Source: an uncultured Chloroflexia bacterium (GTDB taxonomy: Bacteria > Chloroflexota > Limnocylindria > Limnocylindrales > CSP1-4). Taken from it: a DNA stretch of 64,000 bases. The notes beneath the pieces are model-generated. The model saw only the letters and a program-made list of their open reading frames with translations. It was not told the origin of the DNA and ran no database searches. The DNA lies in the NCBI GenBank assembly GCA_963766735.1, contig CAVYBU010000006.1:128001-192000 (forward strand), in the 5' to 3' direction. Positions 58,248-64,000 of the stretch are shown piece by piece; position 1 is the first letter of the stretch; each line of letters opens with the position of its first letter. The position numbers were made by a program, and so were the translations under genes.

Positions 58248-61200
58248 ATGAACCCGCTGCCGATCCAGCCGGCGAAGATCCACCCGCCGCTGCTCCGCCA
58301 CGATGTCCTCTCCCGAGAGCGCCTCAACGGCTGGCTGGACAACGCGGCGAACGGGCGCGTCGCGCTGGTCATCGCCGAGGCCGGGTTCGGCAAGACCACG
58401 TTCCTTGCGGACTGGGCGCGCCACACCCGACGCGCAACGGCGTGGTACCGCCTGGAACCGGATGACCGGGACTGGCTCGCCTTCATCAGGCATCTGGTCG
58501 CAAGCGGCCGGGAGATCGACCCCGGGTTCGCTCCGGATACCTACGACCTGCTGGCCGCACTGGGGCCAGGTGGTCCGTCCAGGGATGACCTGATCGTCAG
58601 CGTCGCCCAGGAGATGGCCGAACTCGCATCGTCGCTGCCCAACGGCCTGAGCCTCCTGTTCGACGACTACCACTCCGTCGACGGCAGCCCCGAGACCGAG
58701 CCCGTCATGAAGGCCCTGGTCGATCGAACGGGACCCGAATTCTCCCTGGTCATCGCGTCCCGGGCGGCGCCATCGCTCGCCCTGGGCAGGCTGCGCGCCC
58801 GCGGCGCCCTCTCGCGGATCGACGGCGACGGCCTCTGTTTCGACGTCCCCGAGACGGAGCGCCTCTTCCGGGATGCCTACCACCAGCCCCTGGACGCGGA
58901 CGTGGTGGTGGACCTGATCGCCCGGACGGAAGGCTGGGCCGCGCTCCTGTCGCTGGTCCACACGAGCCTTGAGGGCCGAGCGGCCGTCGAGGCTCGCGGG
59001 CTCGTCCGGCACCTGTCGGGCGCTCGCGGCGACATTCGTGACTATCTCGCCGAGGAGGTTCTCGACCACCTTGCTGATCATCTTGCTGACTTCTTGGTGC
59101 GCGCTTCGATCCTCGATGTTGTCGGGCCCGAGTCTGCGGCGCTACTTGGGATCGGCTCCAGAGATGAGTGCGTGGCAATGATCCGAGACGCCGCTGGCCT
59201 TGGTCTTTTGGTCGAGATCACGACGGGTGATGGCCACAGGTTCGTTCCGCTCGTTCGCGAGTACTTGTCCGCCCGTCTGAGCCGAGAAGAGGGGTGGGCC
59301 GCGATCCGCGATGCCCACATGATGCTGGGTGCGCACTACGTCGACTCTGACTGGAGGCTCGCCGCTCATCACTATCGCGCTGCGGGGCAGCCGAGTTTGG
59401 CAGTCCAAGTCATCCAGAACTCCCTGAGCACCATCCTCGGCAGCGGACAGTACCGAGCTGCAGCTGACCTACTCGCCGGTTCCGACGAACTCGTCGTAGG
59501 CGAGGTCCTTCGCTCACGACTCTTGCTACAAGTCGGCGCGGTCGCCGAAGCCCGATCCGCGTCGAGTTCCGCAGTCGCTGCCGCAGCATCGCACCGCCCA
59601 GCCGACCAATCGCTCGCTCTGCAGAACGCCGCAACGATCTCTCTGGTGTCTCGTCAGTACGAGGAAGGTCTCAAATACGCCGAAGAGGCGGAGGCGGCAG
59701 CCACCGACAGGTGGGAAGGGGAGCTCGCCCGGGCTCATGTCGCTCTGCTTGGCGCATCGGGAACTGGGAGCCTTCCGGCCCTGGTGCACCAACTTGAGCG
59801 CCTTCTGGGCGTCCAGCGCAAGCGGGCCTACTGGCATCACGCCGCCATCACAAGCCTCAACCTTGCTCAGGTCCTGGTTTGGCTGGACCGAGACACGGAA
59901 GCGCTGCGACATGCAGCCGACGCTGAAGAATTCCTGACCCGGTCATCCCAAGGCTATGAGTTGGTTTCCGTCAAGCTGGCGCAGGCTCACGCCGAGGCGC
60001 ACCTCGGTCACTGGTGCGCAGCGCAGGCACTACTCGAGACCTCAGTTCAGACAGGCCACCCCGAGGGACAGGCTGAAGCGGTTCTAGACGCGGCAGGACT
60101 TGCTGCGTGGTTCGGGCCGAACGATCTCCCAGCGCGAATCCTGGCTCAGGTTCGGCGCGAGTCCCTCCCGTCCAGCTGGAAGGCACATTGGCGTATCGTC
60201 GATTTGTGGCTTGAGGAAGAGTCGCAGCGGCGGTCAGAGATCCTCGATGAGTTGCGGGCCGATCCGCCCCCCTCACTGGAGGTGGGGGCGGCATTTCGAT
60301 GGCACTACACGAAGGCCAGGGCCTACCACGCTCAAGGGGATGCCAAAGGGTTCGACGACGAGATCGCGCGGGTTGACCAAGTCTGCCAACTCCAACGCTC
60401 ACCGGTCGAGGAGCGGCTTCAGGCGTTGCTCCGTGGGGTCGCATCAGGACCACAGCATCTGTCGAGGGTGATTGAGTCTTGGAGTCCGGCCTCCGCCCCT
60501 CTGATTGGGGTACTCGCGTACGAGGTCGCGGGCCTCCTAGGCTCCCTATCCGATGACGCCGCCGCTGCGGTTGGTCGTGCCGTGGCAGGTGCCCCATACA
60601 GATGGCGACGACCTCTGAGGGTCATGCTCGAGAAGGCCGGCCCGGCGCGACACCTGGACCGTATTGCACAACTGCTTGAGGAGATCGGCGAATCGGCCGA
60701 TGTTCAACTGCTTCGCGAGTACGGTCGTAGGTCGAAACGCGCGCGCGGAAACTGGGGCGAGGACTTGGGGCGACGACTCGCCCCGAGGGCGTTCATCGAG
60801 GATCTAGGCCCGATCTCGATCATCATTGGTGATCGCGTGATCGACGGGCGAGGAATCCGCCGCAGAGTCCTCGGCCTTCTTGCCTTTCTGATTAGCCAGC
60901 CCAACGGATCAGCAACGCCCGACCGCGTCATGGATGCACTGTGGCCTGAGTTGGACCCCGGGCAAGGGAGCAACTCGATCCACCAGACCATCTACTTCCT
61001 TCGGCGCGTGATCGACCCAGACTACCGGGCAGGCGTCTCTCCCGAGTACGTGCACTTCGATAGTGAGGTGATCTGGCTCGATCGGGATCTCGTGCAGTGC
61101 AGGAGTTGGCGCTGTCAGGCTCTCCTAGGCAAGCGCGCCCTCTCGCCATCAGAGGTCGACGAACTCGTCCGGGACTACTGCGGGCGGTTCGCGGCCGAGT

Positions 61201-61493
61201 TCCCGTACGAGGACTGGGCGTCGGACTATCGGGACCATCTACATGCGCGCTACCTGGGCGAGATCGAGAAGGTCCTCTCAGAGCCTCGTCATAGTCCAGA
61301 CCTGCGATGGAGATTATGGGTCGGCCAGCGGGCGCTTTCGGTCGATCCTGAAGCCGATGCGGTCGAGGCTCACGTGATCCGGTTGTATCGCCGACTTGGG
61401 GCGTCTGCCGCCGCGGCAGAGCAGTACGGGCACTACTCGACCGTCATGAGAGACCAGCTCGGCGTCGAGCCCCCTGGGATCGAGGACCTCTGA
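58248..61493 (+). CDS. Large MalT-like AAA ATPase - TPR - wHTH/BTAD transcriptional regulator
   Basis: KIHPP..R...RERL, Walker A AEAGFGKTT, LFDDYH, TEGWAA, DYLAEEV; helical TPR-like middle; LLAFL...DALWPE...LRRV wHTH and BTAD-like end. Confidence 0.88.
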   Translation: MNPLPIQPAKIHPPLLRHDVLSRERLNGWLDNAANGRVALVIAEAGFGKTTFLADWARHTRRATAWYRLEPDDRDWLAFIRHLVASGREIDPGFAPDTYDLLAALGPGGPSRDDLIVSVAQEMAELASSLPNGLSLLFDDYHSVDGSPETEPVMKALVDRTGPEFSLVIASRAAPSLALGRLRARGALSRIDGDGLCFDVPETERLFRDAYHQPLDADVVVDLIARTEGWAALLSLVHTSLEGRAAVEARGLVRHLSGARGDIRDYLAEEVLDHLADHLADFLVRASILDVVGPESAALLGIGSRDECVAMIRDAAGLGLLVEITTGDGHRFVPLVREYLSARLSREEGWAAIRDAHMMLGAHYVDSDWRLAAHHYRAAGQPSLAVQVIQNSLSTILGSGQYRAAADLLAGSDELVVGEVLRSRLLLQVGAVAEARSASSSAVAAAASHRPADQSLALQNAATISLVSRQYEEGLKYAEEAEAAATDRWEGELARAHVALLGASGTGSLPALVHQLERLLGVQRKRAYWHHAAITSLNLAQVLVWLDRDTEALRHAADAEEFLTRSSQGYELVSVKLAQAHAEAHLGHWCAAQALLETSVQTGHPEGQAEAVLDAAGLAAWFGPNDLPARILAQVRRESLPSSWKAHWRIVDLWLEEESQRRSEILDELRADPPPSLEVGAAFRWHYTKARAYHAQGDAKGFDDEIARVDQVCQLQRSPVEERLQALLRGVASGPQHLSRVIESWSPASAPLIGVLAYEVAGLLGSLSDDAAAAVGRAVAGAPYRWRRPLRVMLEKAGPARHLDRIAQLLEEIGESADVQLLREYGRRSKRARGNWGEDLGRRLAPRAFIEDLGPISIIIGDRVIDGRGIRRRVLGLLAFLISQPNGSATPDRVMDALWPELDPGQGSNSIHQTIYFLRRVIDPDYRAGVSPEYVHFDSEVIWLDRDLVQCRSWRCQALLGKRALSPSEVDELVRDYCGRFAAEFPYEDWASDYRDHLHARYLGEIEKVLSEPRHSPDLRWRLWVGQRALSVDPEADAVEAHVIRLYRRLGASAAAAEQYGHYSTVMRDQLGVEPPGIEDL

Positions 61494-61587
61494 TCCAGCT
61501 GGTCGCGCCCGGCGACGAATGGGCGAGCGAGCGTGTCGGTATTGGCTTCCGAGTGGGCGGCCCGGTGGGCATAGGTAGGGTTGCGTA

Positions 61588-61649
61588 TTGACCGGTGTAG
61601 TCCGCCGTGCATATAGTCCGGCCCTGCACCAGTACTTTCGTACGGTGCA
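61588..61649 (+). promoter_or_regulatory. Putative promoter with direct repeat and inverted repeat upstream of peptide genes
   Basis: TTGACC-18-TATAGT; TAGTCCG x2; TGCACC-A-GTAC-TTTC-GTAC-GGTGCA. Confidence 0.5.
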
Positions 61650-61795
61650 CCAAGGAAACGCTTGGACGCGCTGATGCCACCACCTGAAATGGGCACTTAG
61701 GGTGGAGGCGGAGCGAGTAGTGCAACCGACCGGCTTTCGAGTCAGGTCGGTTTTCGTGTTCCCGGCGGACACGGAGGCCGCAAGGAGGTACGAGC

Positions 61796-61828
61796 GTGGC
61801 ACCGAGCAAGGGCCTCAAGGGCTGGTAG
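61796..61828 (+). CDS. Putative 10-aa micropeptide MAPSKGLKGW
   Basis: Strong SD AAGGAGGT 6 nt before GTG; TAG stop; C-terminus resembles the tail of the next peptide. Confidence 0.5.
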   Translation: MAPSKGLKGW

Positions 61829-61854
61829 GACCAGGATCGCGGGAGGATCGACCG

Positions 61855-61944
61855 ATGAAGGATCGCCTCATGCGACTCCTGGCCACTCTCGGCGCAGTCG
61901 CCGCATTGGCGCTCGCCGGAGGCGCGTCGCTAAAGGGCTTCTAG
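61855..61944 (+). CDS. 29-aa signal-peptide-like precursor MKDRLMRLLATLGAVAALALAGGASLKGF
   Basis: GGGAGGA SD; basic n-region, hydrophobic h-region, LAG-G, short tail. Confidence 0.75.
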   Translation: MKDRLMRLLATLGAVAALALAGGASLKGF

Positions 61945-62029
61945 AAGCAGGCAAGGGCCTCAGTACACAAGTCCTCTTCACTTGTGGGTCGAAGGGGCTA
62001 GAGTCCCACCGTTCGGGAACTGAGGACGA

Positions 62030-63394
62030 ATGCCGACAAAGCTGAAGCTCTACATTATTGGAGTCGTAGCGACGAGCGCTATCGCGCTCGCTGCTACGAC
62101 TCGTTTGATTCCAGTCGAGGACGGGGTTGCCCTGACTGTGGGGCCGTTCGGATCTCTCTCGACTCAGGCAGGCCTCGCATTCTGGTGTGCGGTGACCCTG
62201 ATCGCGTCCGCGCTTCCCGTCCGAATGCCTCGCGGAACCATGGTGGGCGTTTCGATCGCGCCGCTGATTGCGGCCACGGTCCTGGGCGGTCCGACTGCCG
62301 GAGCCTGGGTCGCGCTCATCGGGACGACGGAGGTGCGTGAGCTGCGCGGCCGTGTTCCGTGGTACGGCTCGCTGGCCAACCACGCCGGGCTGATGATCCC
62401 CGCGATGGTGGCCGGCATGGTCATGCGAGTACTCGGCGTCCCGGGGAGCGAGGAGTACGCGATCACCTTCATCGCGGCTCTGATCGGTGCGGCCGCCTTC
62501 TTCCTGGTCAACGCGACGCTCACCGCTGCCGCGGTGGCCCTCCAAACTGAGCAGCCATTTCGCAGCGTGTTGCTGGGCGACGCCAAGGTCTTCGCCACGA
62601 ACCTAATTGGGCTTGCCCCGCTCGCTTGGCTCATGGCCCAGATGTACGAGGTAGCTTGGTGGGCGAGCTTGCTGTTCGCCGTTCCGCTCTACACGACGCG
62701 GCTCGCGTACCACAACATCATCGAGATGCGCGAGATGTTCACTCAGACCATCACCGCGCTGGCTGGGGCCGTGGACAAGCGCGATCCGTACACCAGCAAG
62801 CACTCGTGGCGGGTCAAGGAGATCGCAGGCGATATCGGACGGGTCATGCGCCTGGGCGAGAGTGACCTCGAGGCCCTCGAATGGGGCGGCCTGCTGCACG
62901 ACGTGGGCAAGATCGGCGTGCGGGACGCGGTGCTGCTCAAGCAGGAGAAGCTCAACAAGGAGGAACGGGCGCAGATGAACGCGCACCCGGTCCTCGGTGC
63001 GGAGATCATCGCGCCGGTGACGCGGCTGTCCCGGGAGCTGCCGATCATCCGCCACCACCACGAGTGGTACAACGGCTCGGGGTACCCGGACCGGCTGATC
63101 GGGGACGAGATCCCGCTGCTGGCACGCATCCTTCACGTCGCGGACGCCTTCGAGGCGATGACCGCCGCCCGGCCATACCGGATGACGCCGCTGACCTCGG
63201 AGCAGGCACTGGGCGAGCTGCGCAAGTTCGCCGGCGTCCAGTTCGATCCCAAGGTGGTGGACGCCTTCGTGAAGACAGACTGGGCCCAGGATGTGGCCGA
63301 CCCGGGCCGGACGGCGCAGGCGCGACCGATCCCGCTGATCTCGCAGCACGCGAACCGGACGGCCAACGCCGTTGCCACTCCCGACGCAACCTGA
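62030..63394 (+). CDS. Membrane-sensor (MASE-like, about 7-8 TM) HD-GYP c-di-GMP phosphodiesterase
   Basis: N-terminal TMs; DKRDPYTSKHS, LHDVGKIG, HHHEWYNGSGYP, ADAFEAMT..RPYR, QFDP. Confidence 0.92.
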   Translation: MPTKLKLYIIGVVATSAIALAATTRLIPVEDGVALTVGPFGSLSTQAGLAFWCAVTLIASALPVRMPRGTMVGVSIAPLIAATVLGGPTAGAWVALIGTTEVRELRGRVPWYGSLANHAGLMIPAMVAGMVMRVLGVPGSEEYAITFIAALIGAAAFFLVNATLTAAAVALQTEQPFRSVLLGDAKVFATNLIGLAPLAWLMAQMYEVAWWASLLFAVPLYTTRLAYHNIIEMREMFTQTITALAGAVDKRDPYTSKHSWRVKEIAGDIGRVMRLGESDLEALEWGGLLHDVGKIGVRDAVLLKQEKLNKEERAQMNAHPVLGAEIIAPVTRLSRELPIIRHHHEWYNGSGYPDRLIGDEIPLLARILHVADAFEAMTAARPYRMTPLTSEQALGELRKFAGVQFDPKVVDAFVKTDWAQDVADPGRTAQARPIPLISQHANRTANAVATPDAT

Positions 63395-63503: not shown

Positions 63504-64000
63504 ATGCTGATCGGCGGTATCGCGCTCGGGCTGGTGCTCGGTCTGCTCCTGGGCGGGCGCCTGGAGAACCTGGCCGGCATCCGGCTGCGCTTCCTGCCGC
63601 TGCTGTTCGCGGCGGTGATCCTGCGGTTTGCGACGGAGGCGCTGCTCGGGATGGGCGTCGAGGTCGTGGACCTGCTGCGCGTGCCGCTGCTCGGAGGCGC
63701 GTACGGGCTCCTGCTCTTCACCCTCTGGCACAACCGCTCGTACCCGGGCCTGGCGCTGGCCTTCATCGGGATCGCGTCCAACACCCTGGTGATCGTGTGG
63801 AACGGGGGCTGGATGCCGGTGTGGCAGCCCGCCTACGACGCGTCCGGGCTGGCGGGACCGCTCTACTCGCAGCTCCACTTCCCGATCAGTGGCACCGGCG
63901 CCGAGTTCCTGGTCCACCTGGGCCCGCTGGCGGACGTCGTCCCGTTCCCCATCCCACCGCTGCAGAACGTCGCCTCGGTCGGTGACCTGTTCCTGACGGC
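63504..64000 (+). CDS. DUF5317-family membrane protein, 3'-partial
   Basis: Translated by hand: MLIGGIALGLVLGLLLGGRL.NL..IRLR...N..VI..NGGWMPV...LADVVP...SVGD; runs off the window. Confidence 0.85.
   Translation, partial: MLIGGIALGLVLGLLLGGRLENLAGIRLRFLPLLFAAVILRFATEALLGMGVEVVDLLRVPLLGGAYGLLLFTLWHNRSYPGLALAFIGIASNTLVIVWNGGWMPVWQPAYDASGLAGPLYSQLHFPISGTGAEFLVHLGPLADVVPFPIPPLQNVASVGDLFLT

Follow-up and report, generated by a model that had tools for sequence, protein, structure and literature searches.

Short arrest peptides of 5–10 residues are established, among them TnaC, the Erm and Cat leaders and the MAGDIS upstream open reading frame (uORF). In the enterococcal cCF10/iCF10 pair, the inhibitor is encoded by the small prgQ open reading frame (ORF) at the 5' end of the regulated operon, and microcin C combines a 7-codon precursor gene, mccA, with the major facilitator superfamily (MFS) pump MccC. 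To our knowledge, very few genes of ten codons or fewer have a demonstrated role, and we know of no peptide signalling in the phylum Chloroflexota. Here, we describe a 10-codon ORF (the micro-ORF) in a 64,000-nucleotide (nt) stretch of DNA, the window, taken from an uncultured Chloroflexia bacterium (contig CAVYBU010000006.1, positions 128,001 to 192,000, assembly GCA_963766735.1). It is placed between the terminator of a riboswitch of the cyclic di-GMP (c-di-GMP) II class and a 29-codon gene, with 26 nt from its stop to the start of that gene, whose product we call the 29-mer. We conclude that this 33-nt stretch is most likely a real conserved gene and the first cistron of a riboswitch-gated operon, its translation being deduced from coding signatures. 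Conservation across the class Limnocylindria, together with a C-terminal tail that tracks the tail of the 29-mer, points to an undescribed two-peptide control or signalling device. A full-text literature search found no published account of a system made of riboswitch, micro-ORF, 29-mer and HD-GYP enzyme.

A preliminary description of the window had read a Shine-Dalgarno (SD) sequence, 6 nt, GTG and a frame closed by TAG, coding for MAPSKGLKGW in a frame other than the called ORF. Direct reading of the sequence bears this out, and the frame does differ from that of the mechanically called 80-aa ORF at 61702-61944 (offset 94 nt). The two ends that had been compared, LKGW in the micro-ORF and LKGF in the 29-mer, are both there, and the GTG-started product has no hydrophobic stretch, in keeping with the claim that it lacks an export segment. 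Genes of ten codons or fewer escape gene callers, and this one is kept across a class at a defined regulatory position.

The described systems each share part of this arrangement. The enterococcal pair resembles it in that two short related peptides serve one receptor and one of them comes from a tiny ORF heading the controlled transcript. Both enterococcal peptides, however, are made as precursors that have export sequences, and they act once re-imported, whereas the micro-ORF has no export segment, and the transcript here is gated by a second-messenger riboswitch. The N-terminal export segment of a secreted pheromone is absent from the micro-ORF product (8–10 residues), while the 29-mer has a basic-hydrophobic-AxA segment. 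In hypervariable specificity cassettes of the agr type, a peptide gene lies between the variable halves of the genes for its processing and sensing. Similarly, the peptides here lie in a lower-GC block with the C-terminal two thirds of a regulator and the membrane half of an HD-GYP protein, and part of that block is swapped between 95–99% identical copies. The locus differs from agr in lacking an AgrB-like protease and a Cys for a thiolactone, and in having two peptides and c-di-GMP hydrolysis as output; in the one pair of copies only the regulator part is swapped and the peptides are identical.

Microcin C offers the likeness of an SD-led gene of fewer than 11 codons with a critical C-terminal residue and an MFS transporter in the operon. 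It differs in that the terminal residue here is aromatic rather than Asn, and no MccB-like adenylating enzyme or immunity gene was seen in the genes scanned. In the RpfG/DSF (diffusible signal factor) system, an HD-GYP enzyme couples a cell-cell signal to c-di-GMP turnover, and an HD-GYP phosphodiesterase is also the output of the putative signal-sensing module described here. In the present case, the signal would be a peptide where DSF is a fatty acid, a membrane domain of the enzyme's own takes the place of a receiver domain, and the module is known from sequence. A report on Mycobacterium tuberculosis B12 leaders describes for ppe2 a riboswitch-controlled uORF that is needed for downstream expression and works by termination-reinitiation (PMC11260477). 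As in the ppe2/metE leaders of that account, a short ORF in a riboswitch leader would here govern a downstream gene at close stop-start spacing. The M. tuberculosis system is described there as a translational OFF switch (PMC11260477), whereas the window has a c-di-GMP-II aptamer with an overlapping terminator, for which an ON switch is predicted. What also sets the present case apart is the peptide: its sequence is kept throughout a class, some species have it in tandem copies, and it mirrors the next peptide's tail.

Conservation and coding signatures of the micro-ORF

Related loci were collected through the HD-GYP protein encoded downstream. From at least 544 HD-GYP relatives, 80 loci in named metagenome-assembled genomes (MAGs) were taken, with HD-GYP proteins 60–81% identical to that of the window and record titles of Chloroflexota, Candidatus Limnocylindria or Limnocylindrales. 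In all, 107 loci were examined (riboswitch anchor in 100; 90 unique). Within the genus, the 501-nt leader is present in 26 of 36 other genomes at 79–90% identity, and of 27 same-genus loci aligned, 25 keep the whole arrangement of SD, 6–7 nt gap, GTG start, ten codons and stop (24 TAG, 1 TAA). Across the unique loci, an SD-led ORF was found in 87 of 90, of which 83 have 9–11 codons (10 codons in 73, 9 in 9, 11 in 1) and four are in-frame tandem, multi-unit versions of 21, 24, 30 and 37 codons. The micro-ORF was also found in 21 of 22 further loci having the riboswitch anchor and the long peptide. The consensus of its product is M-x-P-[ED]-x-x-phi-K-G-W.

A second family of the class adds 39 unique loci with a different leader (SD context AGAGGGCACCUUCUG) and the same order of parts. 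There, the micro-ORF starts with ATG, has 8–9 codons and encodes M-A-R-x-x-[VI]-K-G-W, while the long peptide has 32 residues and ends ...AGGA[SG]FKGW. The preliminary description had proposed looking for an SD and a micro-ORF at the same position in orthologous loci, and both are thus present across two families. A hidden Markov model profile of the 29-mer matched 15 of 23 genomes of the window's family and 12 of 16 of the second; two further families, of which 4 and 2 genomes were sampled, gave no match, and 355 genomes from the rest of the phylum gave five marginal matches only.

We found the pattern of variation to favour a gene rather than an RNA element. The SD, (A/T)GGAGG or AGAGGG, sits 5–9 nt before the GTG or ATG start, and in the related loci (A/T)GGAGG is kept at 6–7 nt. 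Among the 87 ORFs, starts are GTG in 79 and ATG in 8, and stops are TAG in 78 and TAA in 9. The ORF varies in length by whole codons only, and the spacer that follows it takes every length class (remainders of 0, 1 and 2 on division by three in 23, 27 and 33 loci). Proline at codon 3 is written with all four codons (CCG 43, CCC 21, CCT 5, CCA 3), codon 4 is Glu or Asp in 57 of 82 loci with GAA, GAG, GAT and GAC all used, the Lys codon is AAG in 80 and AAA in 2, and the last codon is TGG in 70, TTC in 8, TTT in 1 and TAC in 3. When codon changes were counted on an HD-GYP tree of 66 rows, the first, second and third positions had changed 8, 1 and 17 times in Pro codon 3, 0, 0 and 2 times in the Lys codon, and 0, 0 and 6 times in the stop. 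At least 12 of the events at Pro codon 3 were synonymous-only, as were both changes in the Lys codon. RNAalifold run on 49 leaders gave no conserved pairing over the SD, start, ORF or following spacer, and the SD is unpaired in the consensus structure.

That the stretch works instead at the level of RNA or DNA, for instance as a binding site for a protein or within the expression platform, and is open in one frame by accident, is hardly credible in light of these comparisons, which largely refute it. It would account for the near invariance of AAGGGCTGGTAG within the genus, for its retention in three or four loci despite a broken frame, and for a start region, AGCGUG, that pairs with the aptamer sequence CGCGCU in the ligand-free minimum free energy (MFE) fold. 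Across the class, however, letters vary while residues stay (AAG/AAA; GGC/GGT/GGG; TGG/TTC/TTT/TAC; CCN), lengths change by codons, the 49 leaders have no consensus pairing there, and the pairing between start and aptamer shows no compensatory change and is absent in the second family.

A scan of both strands of the 3.62-Mb genome (70.6% G+C) was made for GGAGG followed after 4–9 nt by ATG or GTG and an ORF of 7–12 codons ending in K-[GPAS]-[WFY]-stop. Two places match this pattern, the micro-ORF locus and a near-identical copy on contig C10. With so few matches genome-wide and with conservation in relatives, the micro-ORF is more than a chance occurrence.

The tandem versions carry the motif more than once. 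Loci L087, L093, L110 and L117 have 2, 3, 3 and 4 units, each of 7–11 residues and each ending in K-G-W or K-G-F (NPKSALKGW-SLNPESALKGW in L087, SSVTKGF three times in L093, ...ITKGW three times in L110 and ...VTKGW four times in L117). Since unit lengths differ, at least two independent expansions took place. The three units of L110 have drifted apart in their first four codons but retain ITKGW throughout, with one synonymous GGC/GGT change, which argues for selection on the product beyond the stop-proximal copy alone. Multi-unit precursors of this kind, and the MFS_3-type transporter in the operon, could also be expected of a ribosomally synthesised and post-translationally modified peptide (RiPP), with the micro-ORF giving a precursor or core peptide in one or several copies, for instance with a Lys-Trp cross-link, that the MFS protein exports. 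Lys/Trp motifs are used by radical-SAM peptides. Pfam searches that reached about 8 kb upstream and 12 kb downstream identified, among the large ORFs there, DnaB, PCMT, AAA_14/DUF4143, PIG-L and MFS proteins, left several ORFs without a family match, and recognised no RiPP-modifying enzyme. The aromatic residue can also be F or Y, and the genome has such peptides at the micro-ORF locus and its copy only, so that we consider a RiPP-like product very improbable.

Shared tails of the micro-ORF product and the 29-mer

Class-wide, the micro-ORF product ends ...[S/x]-phi-K-G-W and the long peptide ...A-S-phi-[KR]-G-[FW]. Over the last five residues, 83 unique loci of the first set have 164 shared residues, against 151.9 ± 2.7 with partners shuffled (0 of 10000 shuffles reach 164), and the second family has 128 against 111.3 ± 2.7; these shuffles ignore the relatedness of the loci. 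Identical pentapeptides were observed in 8 loci of the first set (SIKGF, SLKGF, SVKGW, SIKGW, SLKGW, TLKGF, SLKGY) and 8 of the second (SVKGW, SIKGW, SLKGW), although they are written with synonymous codons and with Ser codons of two families. For Ser, first-set micro-ORFs use AGC where the 29-mer gene uses TCN, and the Gly, Leu and Lys codons differ too (GGT/GGG, CTT/CTC, AAG/AAA). In L164, four of the five tail codons are synonymously different between the two peptides, and in L181 and L229 Ser replaces Gly at position -2 in both, as AGC in the micro-ORF and TCT or TCC in the long peptide. The same pentapeptides in different codons contradict the idea, raised in the preliminary description as a possible refutation, that DNA duplication alone produced the resemblance. 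Two direct repeats in the window (a 12-mer at 61806 and 61951, and a 22-mer with 77% identity) were considered as its source and dropped, being absent in relatives.

Co-variation of the tails, which had also been proposed as a check, was found in part: the resemblance holds and rare tail changes (Ile, Thr, Tyr, Ser) occur jointly in both peptides, but identical tails are absent in most loci. In independent contrasts run on FastTree trees of the first set, Ile at -4 changed in the same direction in 4 cases and in the opposite direction in none among 5 pairs, and the corresponding same/opposite values were 1.7/0 for W, 1/0 for Y, 1/0.1 for V and 1/0 for Thr at -5. Co-variation of the terminal W or F alone was not significant; all four W-ending 29-mers pair with W-ending micro-ORFs, which is uninformative because W is the majority state in micro-ORFs anyway. 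An accurate statement of the relationship is a shared C-terminal motif with partial matching, to all appearances selected at the peptide level.

The preliminary description had offered two readings, a cytoplasmic copy of the signal acting as agonist or antagonist, and a leader peptide, and the comparisons lend it partial support. Conservation at the peptide level together with tail matching suggests that something reads the C-terminus. Our favoured reading, to which we give a probability of roughly 60%, is that the micro-ORF yields a micropeptide sharing a recognition partner with the 29-mer tail, and that its translation also feeds ribosomes to the 29-mer. At high c-di-GMP, stabilisation of aptamer helix P1 would prevent the overlapping terminator from forming and allow the leader to be transcribed. 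The exposed strong SD and the GTG would then drive translation of the 8–10-residue M-x-P-[ED]-x-x-phi-K-G-W peptide, as its coding signatures imply, and ribosomes terminating at UAG or UAA, 2–33 nt from the next start, would probably re-initiate on the 29-mer where a separate SD is absent. The micropeptide itself appears to be under selection for a phi-K-G-aromatic C-terminus matched to the S-phi-[KR]-G-aromatic tail of the long peptide. Both tails may be read by one shared partner, a sensor, transporter or processing protein of the cassette, and a partner within the cassette seems the most economical reading. On this view, the epitope shown by the long peptide once it is inserted in the membrane or secreted would exist a second time in soluble form, as the leaderless micropeptide, either in the cytoplasm or possibly after export, with the MFS protein as a speculative route. 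If a shared partner is real, it would connect peptide signalling with c-di-GMP turnover in a new way, with a mimic inside the cell of an epitope outside it.

The part of this reading that concerns ribosome supply could in principle suffice by itself. The micro-ORF would then be a uORF of which only the act of translation matters, through termination-reinitiation or protection from Rho, and whose peptide sequence has no role. Many loci have spacers of 2–12 nt with no SD for the next gene, as this would predict, and the riboswitch-controlled uORF of M. tuberculosis ppe2 provides a precedent for termination-reinitiation (PMC11260477). A peptide without a role should not, however, keep its Pro, acidic, Lys, Gly and aromatic residues through synonymous change in two families with different leaders, retain its motif in in-frame tandem expansions, or match the tail of the next peptide, and we judge this explanation improbable.

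A cis-acting leader peptide is the strongest alternative, although we consider it unlikely. Here, the nascent ...phi-K-G-W and a stop read by release factor 1 (RF1) would slow or arrest termination, possibly in response to a small molecule, so that the paused ribosome controls the next cistron or protects the leader RNA; the 29-mer tail would do likewise for HD-GYP by holding a hairpin open. TnaC, the Erm and Cat leaders and the AdoMetDC uORF encoding MAGDIS are likewise very short leader ORFs with the tightest conservation by the stop, a biased stop and a cistron downstream, and the micro-ORF is most strongly conserved over its last three codons and in the class of its stop. TGA stops are absent from both families (0/87 and 0/39, the latter with TAG 23 and TAA 16), with L148 as the single exception, while in the long frames of the genome TGA makes up 72% of stops overall and 45% after TGG (45/101). 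The micro-ORF and the 29-mer each lie directly upstream of another cistron, and a hairpin begins 2–7 nt past the 29-mer stop in most loci. A nascent-chain arrest would make K-G-W-UAG a new arrest-type motif.

Other observations fit this alternative poorly. Between the micro-ORF and the 29-mer start, the 49 leaders hold no conserved structure masking that start, of the kind that a paused ribosome would remodel; a hairpin is found only past the 29-mer stop. Unlike the known arrest leaders, for which stalling is more than the candidate mechanism it is here, the micro-ORF keeps its motif internally, with K-G-W/F copies before sense codons maintained under selection in the tandem versions. It also co-varies with a second peptide, and matched rare tail substitutions are unexpected if the sole partner is the invariant ribosome. 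The 29-mer, moreover, tolerates TGA: first-set long peptides, mostly F-ending, have it in 16 of 84, whereas W-ending long peptides have it in 0 of 39. The stop bias could equally mean that an exact C-terminal Trp matters, or that RF1 is needed. UGA is the leakiest stop and is misread by tRNA-Trp, which is what makes the exact-Trp explanation of the bias available.

Several results weigh against a shared recognition partner. A termination mechanism acting in cis would explain the strong C-terminal conservation and the lack of TGA stops just as well. The micro-ORF ends in W where the long peptide ends in F in 66 of 83 loci, and has K where the long peptide has R in 44 of 83. Contrasts in the second set (28 rows, with 11 HD-GYP ORFs that were too short left out) are weak, at about 4.2 same and 1.4 opposite, and Val at -4 gives 0.6 against 1.4, so that phylogeny-corrected support for tail co-variation, while consistent, appears modest. 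By the positive-inside rule, the tail of the long peptide should lie outside the cell, while the micropeptide is made inside. The identical peptides beside regulators of 50% identity in the C6/C10 pair of copies argue against tight specificity between the peptides and the regulator's sensor. Finally, the micro-ORF is out of frame in four loci. Three of these (L012, L034 and L073) have one or two extra bases, HD-GYP ORFs truncated to 293, 267 and 401 aa and, in two, a broken 29-mer; with L142 as the fourth, all four have a broken 29-mer or a truncated HD-GYP ORF. Because other ORFs are broken in all of them, the frame was probably lost through assembly indels. Many MAG loci (L012, L016, L018, L034, L073, L142 and others) have a 29-mer broken or an HD-GYP ORF truncated by single-base indels, and frame arguments from any single locus are unreliable for that reason.

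The shared-partner reading can be carried further, to a riboswitch-gated signalling cassette of two peptides with matched tails. At high c-di-GMP, an inside 8–10-residue mimic and an outside 8-residue tail, the latter made through a Sec-type pre-peptide, would share a phi-K/R-G-aromatic C-terminus and would both be read by the sensor halves found with them in the swappable lower-GC block, those of the cytoplasmic STAND/BTAD regulator and the HD-GYP membrane domain, and the DUF5317-MFS protein would move peptide, in a pherotype-like system that sets c-di-GMP turnover. The micropeptide would then be a primer for the outside signal, a competitor of it, or a self/non-self discriminator. This fuller scheme is tentative; we think it conceivable but would not expect all of it to hold.

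The riboswitch leader, the 29-codon gene and the operon

The operon runs micro-ORF, signal-peptide-like gene of 29–32 codons, membrane HD-GYP and DUF5317-MFS, with a STAND/BTAD regulator just upstream. With a c-di-GMP riboswitch before it and HD-GYP after it, the micro-ORF would head an operon that c-di-GMP induces and whose enzyme breaks c-di-GMP down. Coordinates of all features are given in Table 1.

Table 1. Features at the micro-ORF locus, in window positions
Feature	Position	Strand	Basis and details
STAND-type MalT-like NTPase regulator with C-terminal BTAD/SARP-type module, 1175 aa	57966..61493	+	Pfam AAA_16, BTAD
Promoter-like site TTGACC-18-TATAGT	61588..61617	+	Consensus scan, 10/12; TTGAC and TATAGT kept in same-genus alignment; putative function
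c-di-GMP-II riboswitch aptamer	61655..61738	+	Rfam RF01786, 59.5 bits (gathering score 53.5)
Terminator-like hairpin with U-rich tract	61728..61762	+	Terminator scan; hairpin 61728-61752; all pairs kept in 49 leaders
Second hairpin, with terminator U-tract as 5' arm	61749..61779	+	RNAalifold, 49 leaders: 13 pairs, 5 with compensatory double changes
SD of micro-ORF, AAGGAGGT	61782..61789	+	Read from sequence; spacer ACGAGC (6 nt) before start
Micro-ORF, 10 codons	61796..61828	+	GTG 61796-61798, GCA CCG AGC AAG GGC CTC AAG GGC TGG, TAG 61826-61828
SD of 29-codon gene, GGGAGGA	61841..61847	+	Read from sequence; GGAGGA kept in same-genus loci
29-codon gene, product MKDRLMRLLATLGAVAALALAGGASLKGF	61855..61944	+	Basic N-terminus, hydrophobic core, A-x-A, then GGASLKGF
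Structured spacer, 29-mer stop to HD-GYP start	61945..62029	+	CCUCAGU (61958-61964) complementary to ACUGAGG (62019-62025), the HD-GYP ribosome-binding site
HD-GYP c-di-GMP phosphodiesterase with N-terminal multi-pass membrane domain	62030..63394	+	Pfam HD_5 1e-37, HD 3e-22
DUF5317 + MFS (MFS_1/MFS_3) fusion, 719 aa, start	63504..64000	+	Runs off window; Pfam on full ORF from genome (L121:105-2264)

The riboswitch match covers model positions 1-84 of 84 (E = 4.1e-12) and has the same score in a search of the whole genome. The terminator hairpin and P1 overlap, the former by its 5' arm and the latter by its 3' strand (61729-61738), and the ligand-free MFE and centroid folds form the terminator hairpin and not P1. 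This overlap and the ligand-free fold give the geometry of an ON switch, and the riboswitch is predicted to be one. RNAalifold on the 49 leaders predicts the terminator and the second hairpin only. The pairing of aptamer bases 61667-61672 with the start region (61793-61798), seen in the ligand-free MFE, is not supported as a conserved element: in a motif comparison that read about half of the loci, both sides are nearly invariant, and the single variable aptamer base (T/C/A) is uncompensated. Such a pairing could be a further layer of control at translation and might account for GTG being preferred, a possibility that the comparisons leave unsupported.

RNA libraries of four studies all have contigs on the leader, and three have contigs of at least 99% identity that jointly span 61636-61952, which does not in itself prove transcription. 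One 289-nt contig (61664-61952, one mismatch) bridges riboswitch, micro-ORF and 29-mer. The four libraries gave no 99%-identity cover of the HD-GYP body, and leader cover ends near 61952 in two studies, which we do not use to claim a short transcript.

An alignment of 52 29-mer sequences has G22, G23 and S25 invariant and A19, A21, A24, G28 and F29 conserved in at least 90%. The peptide looks like a signal peptide, its signal-peptidase site placed by the A-x-A pattern alone, followed by an 8-residue tail, or else like a single-pass membrane peptide with the tail outside. The spacer between micro-ORF and 29-mer is bimodal, being either 8–12 nt, often without an SD of its own, or 22–28 nt with GGAGGA; many distant loci have no separate 29-mer SD, and there the spacer is 2–12 nt. 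In the spacer between the 29-mer and HD-GYP, the first 28 nt pair with the last 25 nt in single-sequence MFE folds of 48 of 52 loci (5 or more end-to-end pairs); the mean is 11.4 pairs, compared with 5.5 for shuffled sequences. The base of this hairpin lies just past the 29-mer stop in most loci, as said above, and its other end is at the HD-GYP ribosome-binding site. The MFE fold of the window's own spacer does not show end-to-end pairing, CCUCAGU/ACUGAGG having been read by eye, and RNAalifold gave no consensus structure for this spacer, owing to poor alignment. The CCUCAGU/ACUGAGG pairing would mask the HD-GYP ribosome-binding site, which suggests a chain of translational coupling down to the enzyme. 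In most loci, the spacer hairpin also has a conserved apical motif around UAGAGU (GGGCUAGAGUCC in the window), which might bind a protein or an RNA, or serve as a processing signal.

The HD-GYP gene flanks the peptides in 80 of 80 loci, and the DUF5317-MFS fusion lies downstream of it in 77 of 80. The C-terminal 330 aa of the regulator are encoded upstream in the same orientation in 68 of 80, most misses having cut flanks, yet the C6 and C10 regulators diverge beside identical peptides. In NCBIfam, the regulator has an N-terminal MalT match (1.5e-48, below the family cut-off) and a BagI/FevR SARP match. The membrane domain of HD-GYP scores 23.4 bits against MASE9, below the cut-off of 24.3; an HD-GYP survey that defines MASE9 suggests ligand binding within the membrane (10.1101/2021.11.05.467447). 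A complex prediction for this domain (residues 1-235, 52-row alignment) with the 29-mer scored 0.01, in a run made without controls and with a partner below the recommended 30 residues, and speaks neither for nor against binding. For DUF5317, a family without known function, the full-text literature search found no paper.

A lower-GC island at about 58900-62800 (62–65%, against 68–72% around it) takes in the riboswitch and both peptide genes and extends into the genes on either side, over the C-terminal two thirds of the regulator and the membrane half of HD-GYP. Over more than 11 kb, the C10 copy (L122) matches the window colinearly at 95–99% identity, except in the regulator from about residue 334 to the end. 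That part is too diverged for a blastn match to window positions 58966-61557, and amino-acid identity over the whole protein is 50%, while the riboswitch and both peptides are identical to those of the window. The copy could come from a variant strain within the bin, or from a recent duplication in which the sensor and DNA-binding part was exchanged.

Riboswitches of the c-di-GMP-II-GAG variant are abundant in the same genome, with 10 RF03169 matches of 55–77 bits in 6 loci scanned (contigs C2, C3, C7 and C8). Three of them stand in tandem gene units on C7, and each adjoins a downstream ORF with a signal-peptide-like or lipoprotein-like start.

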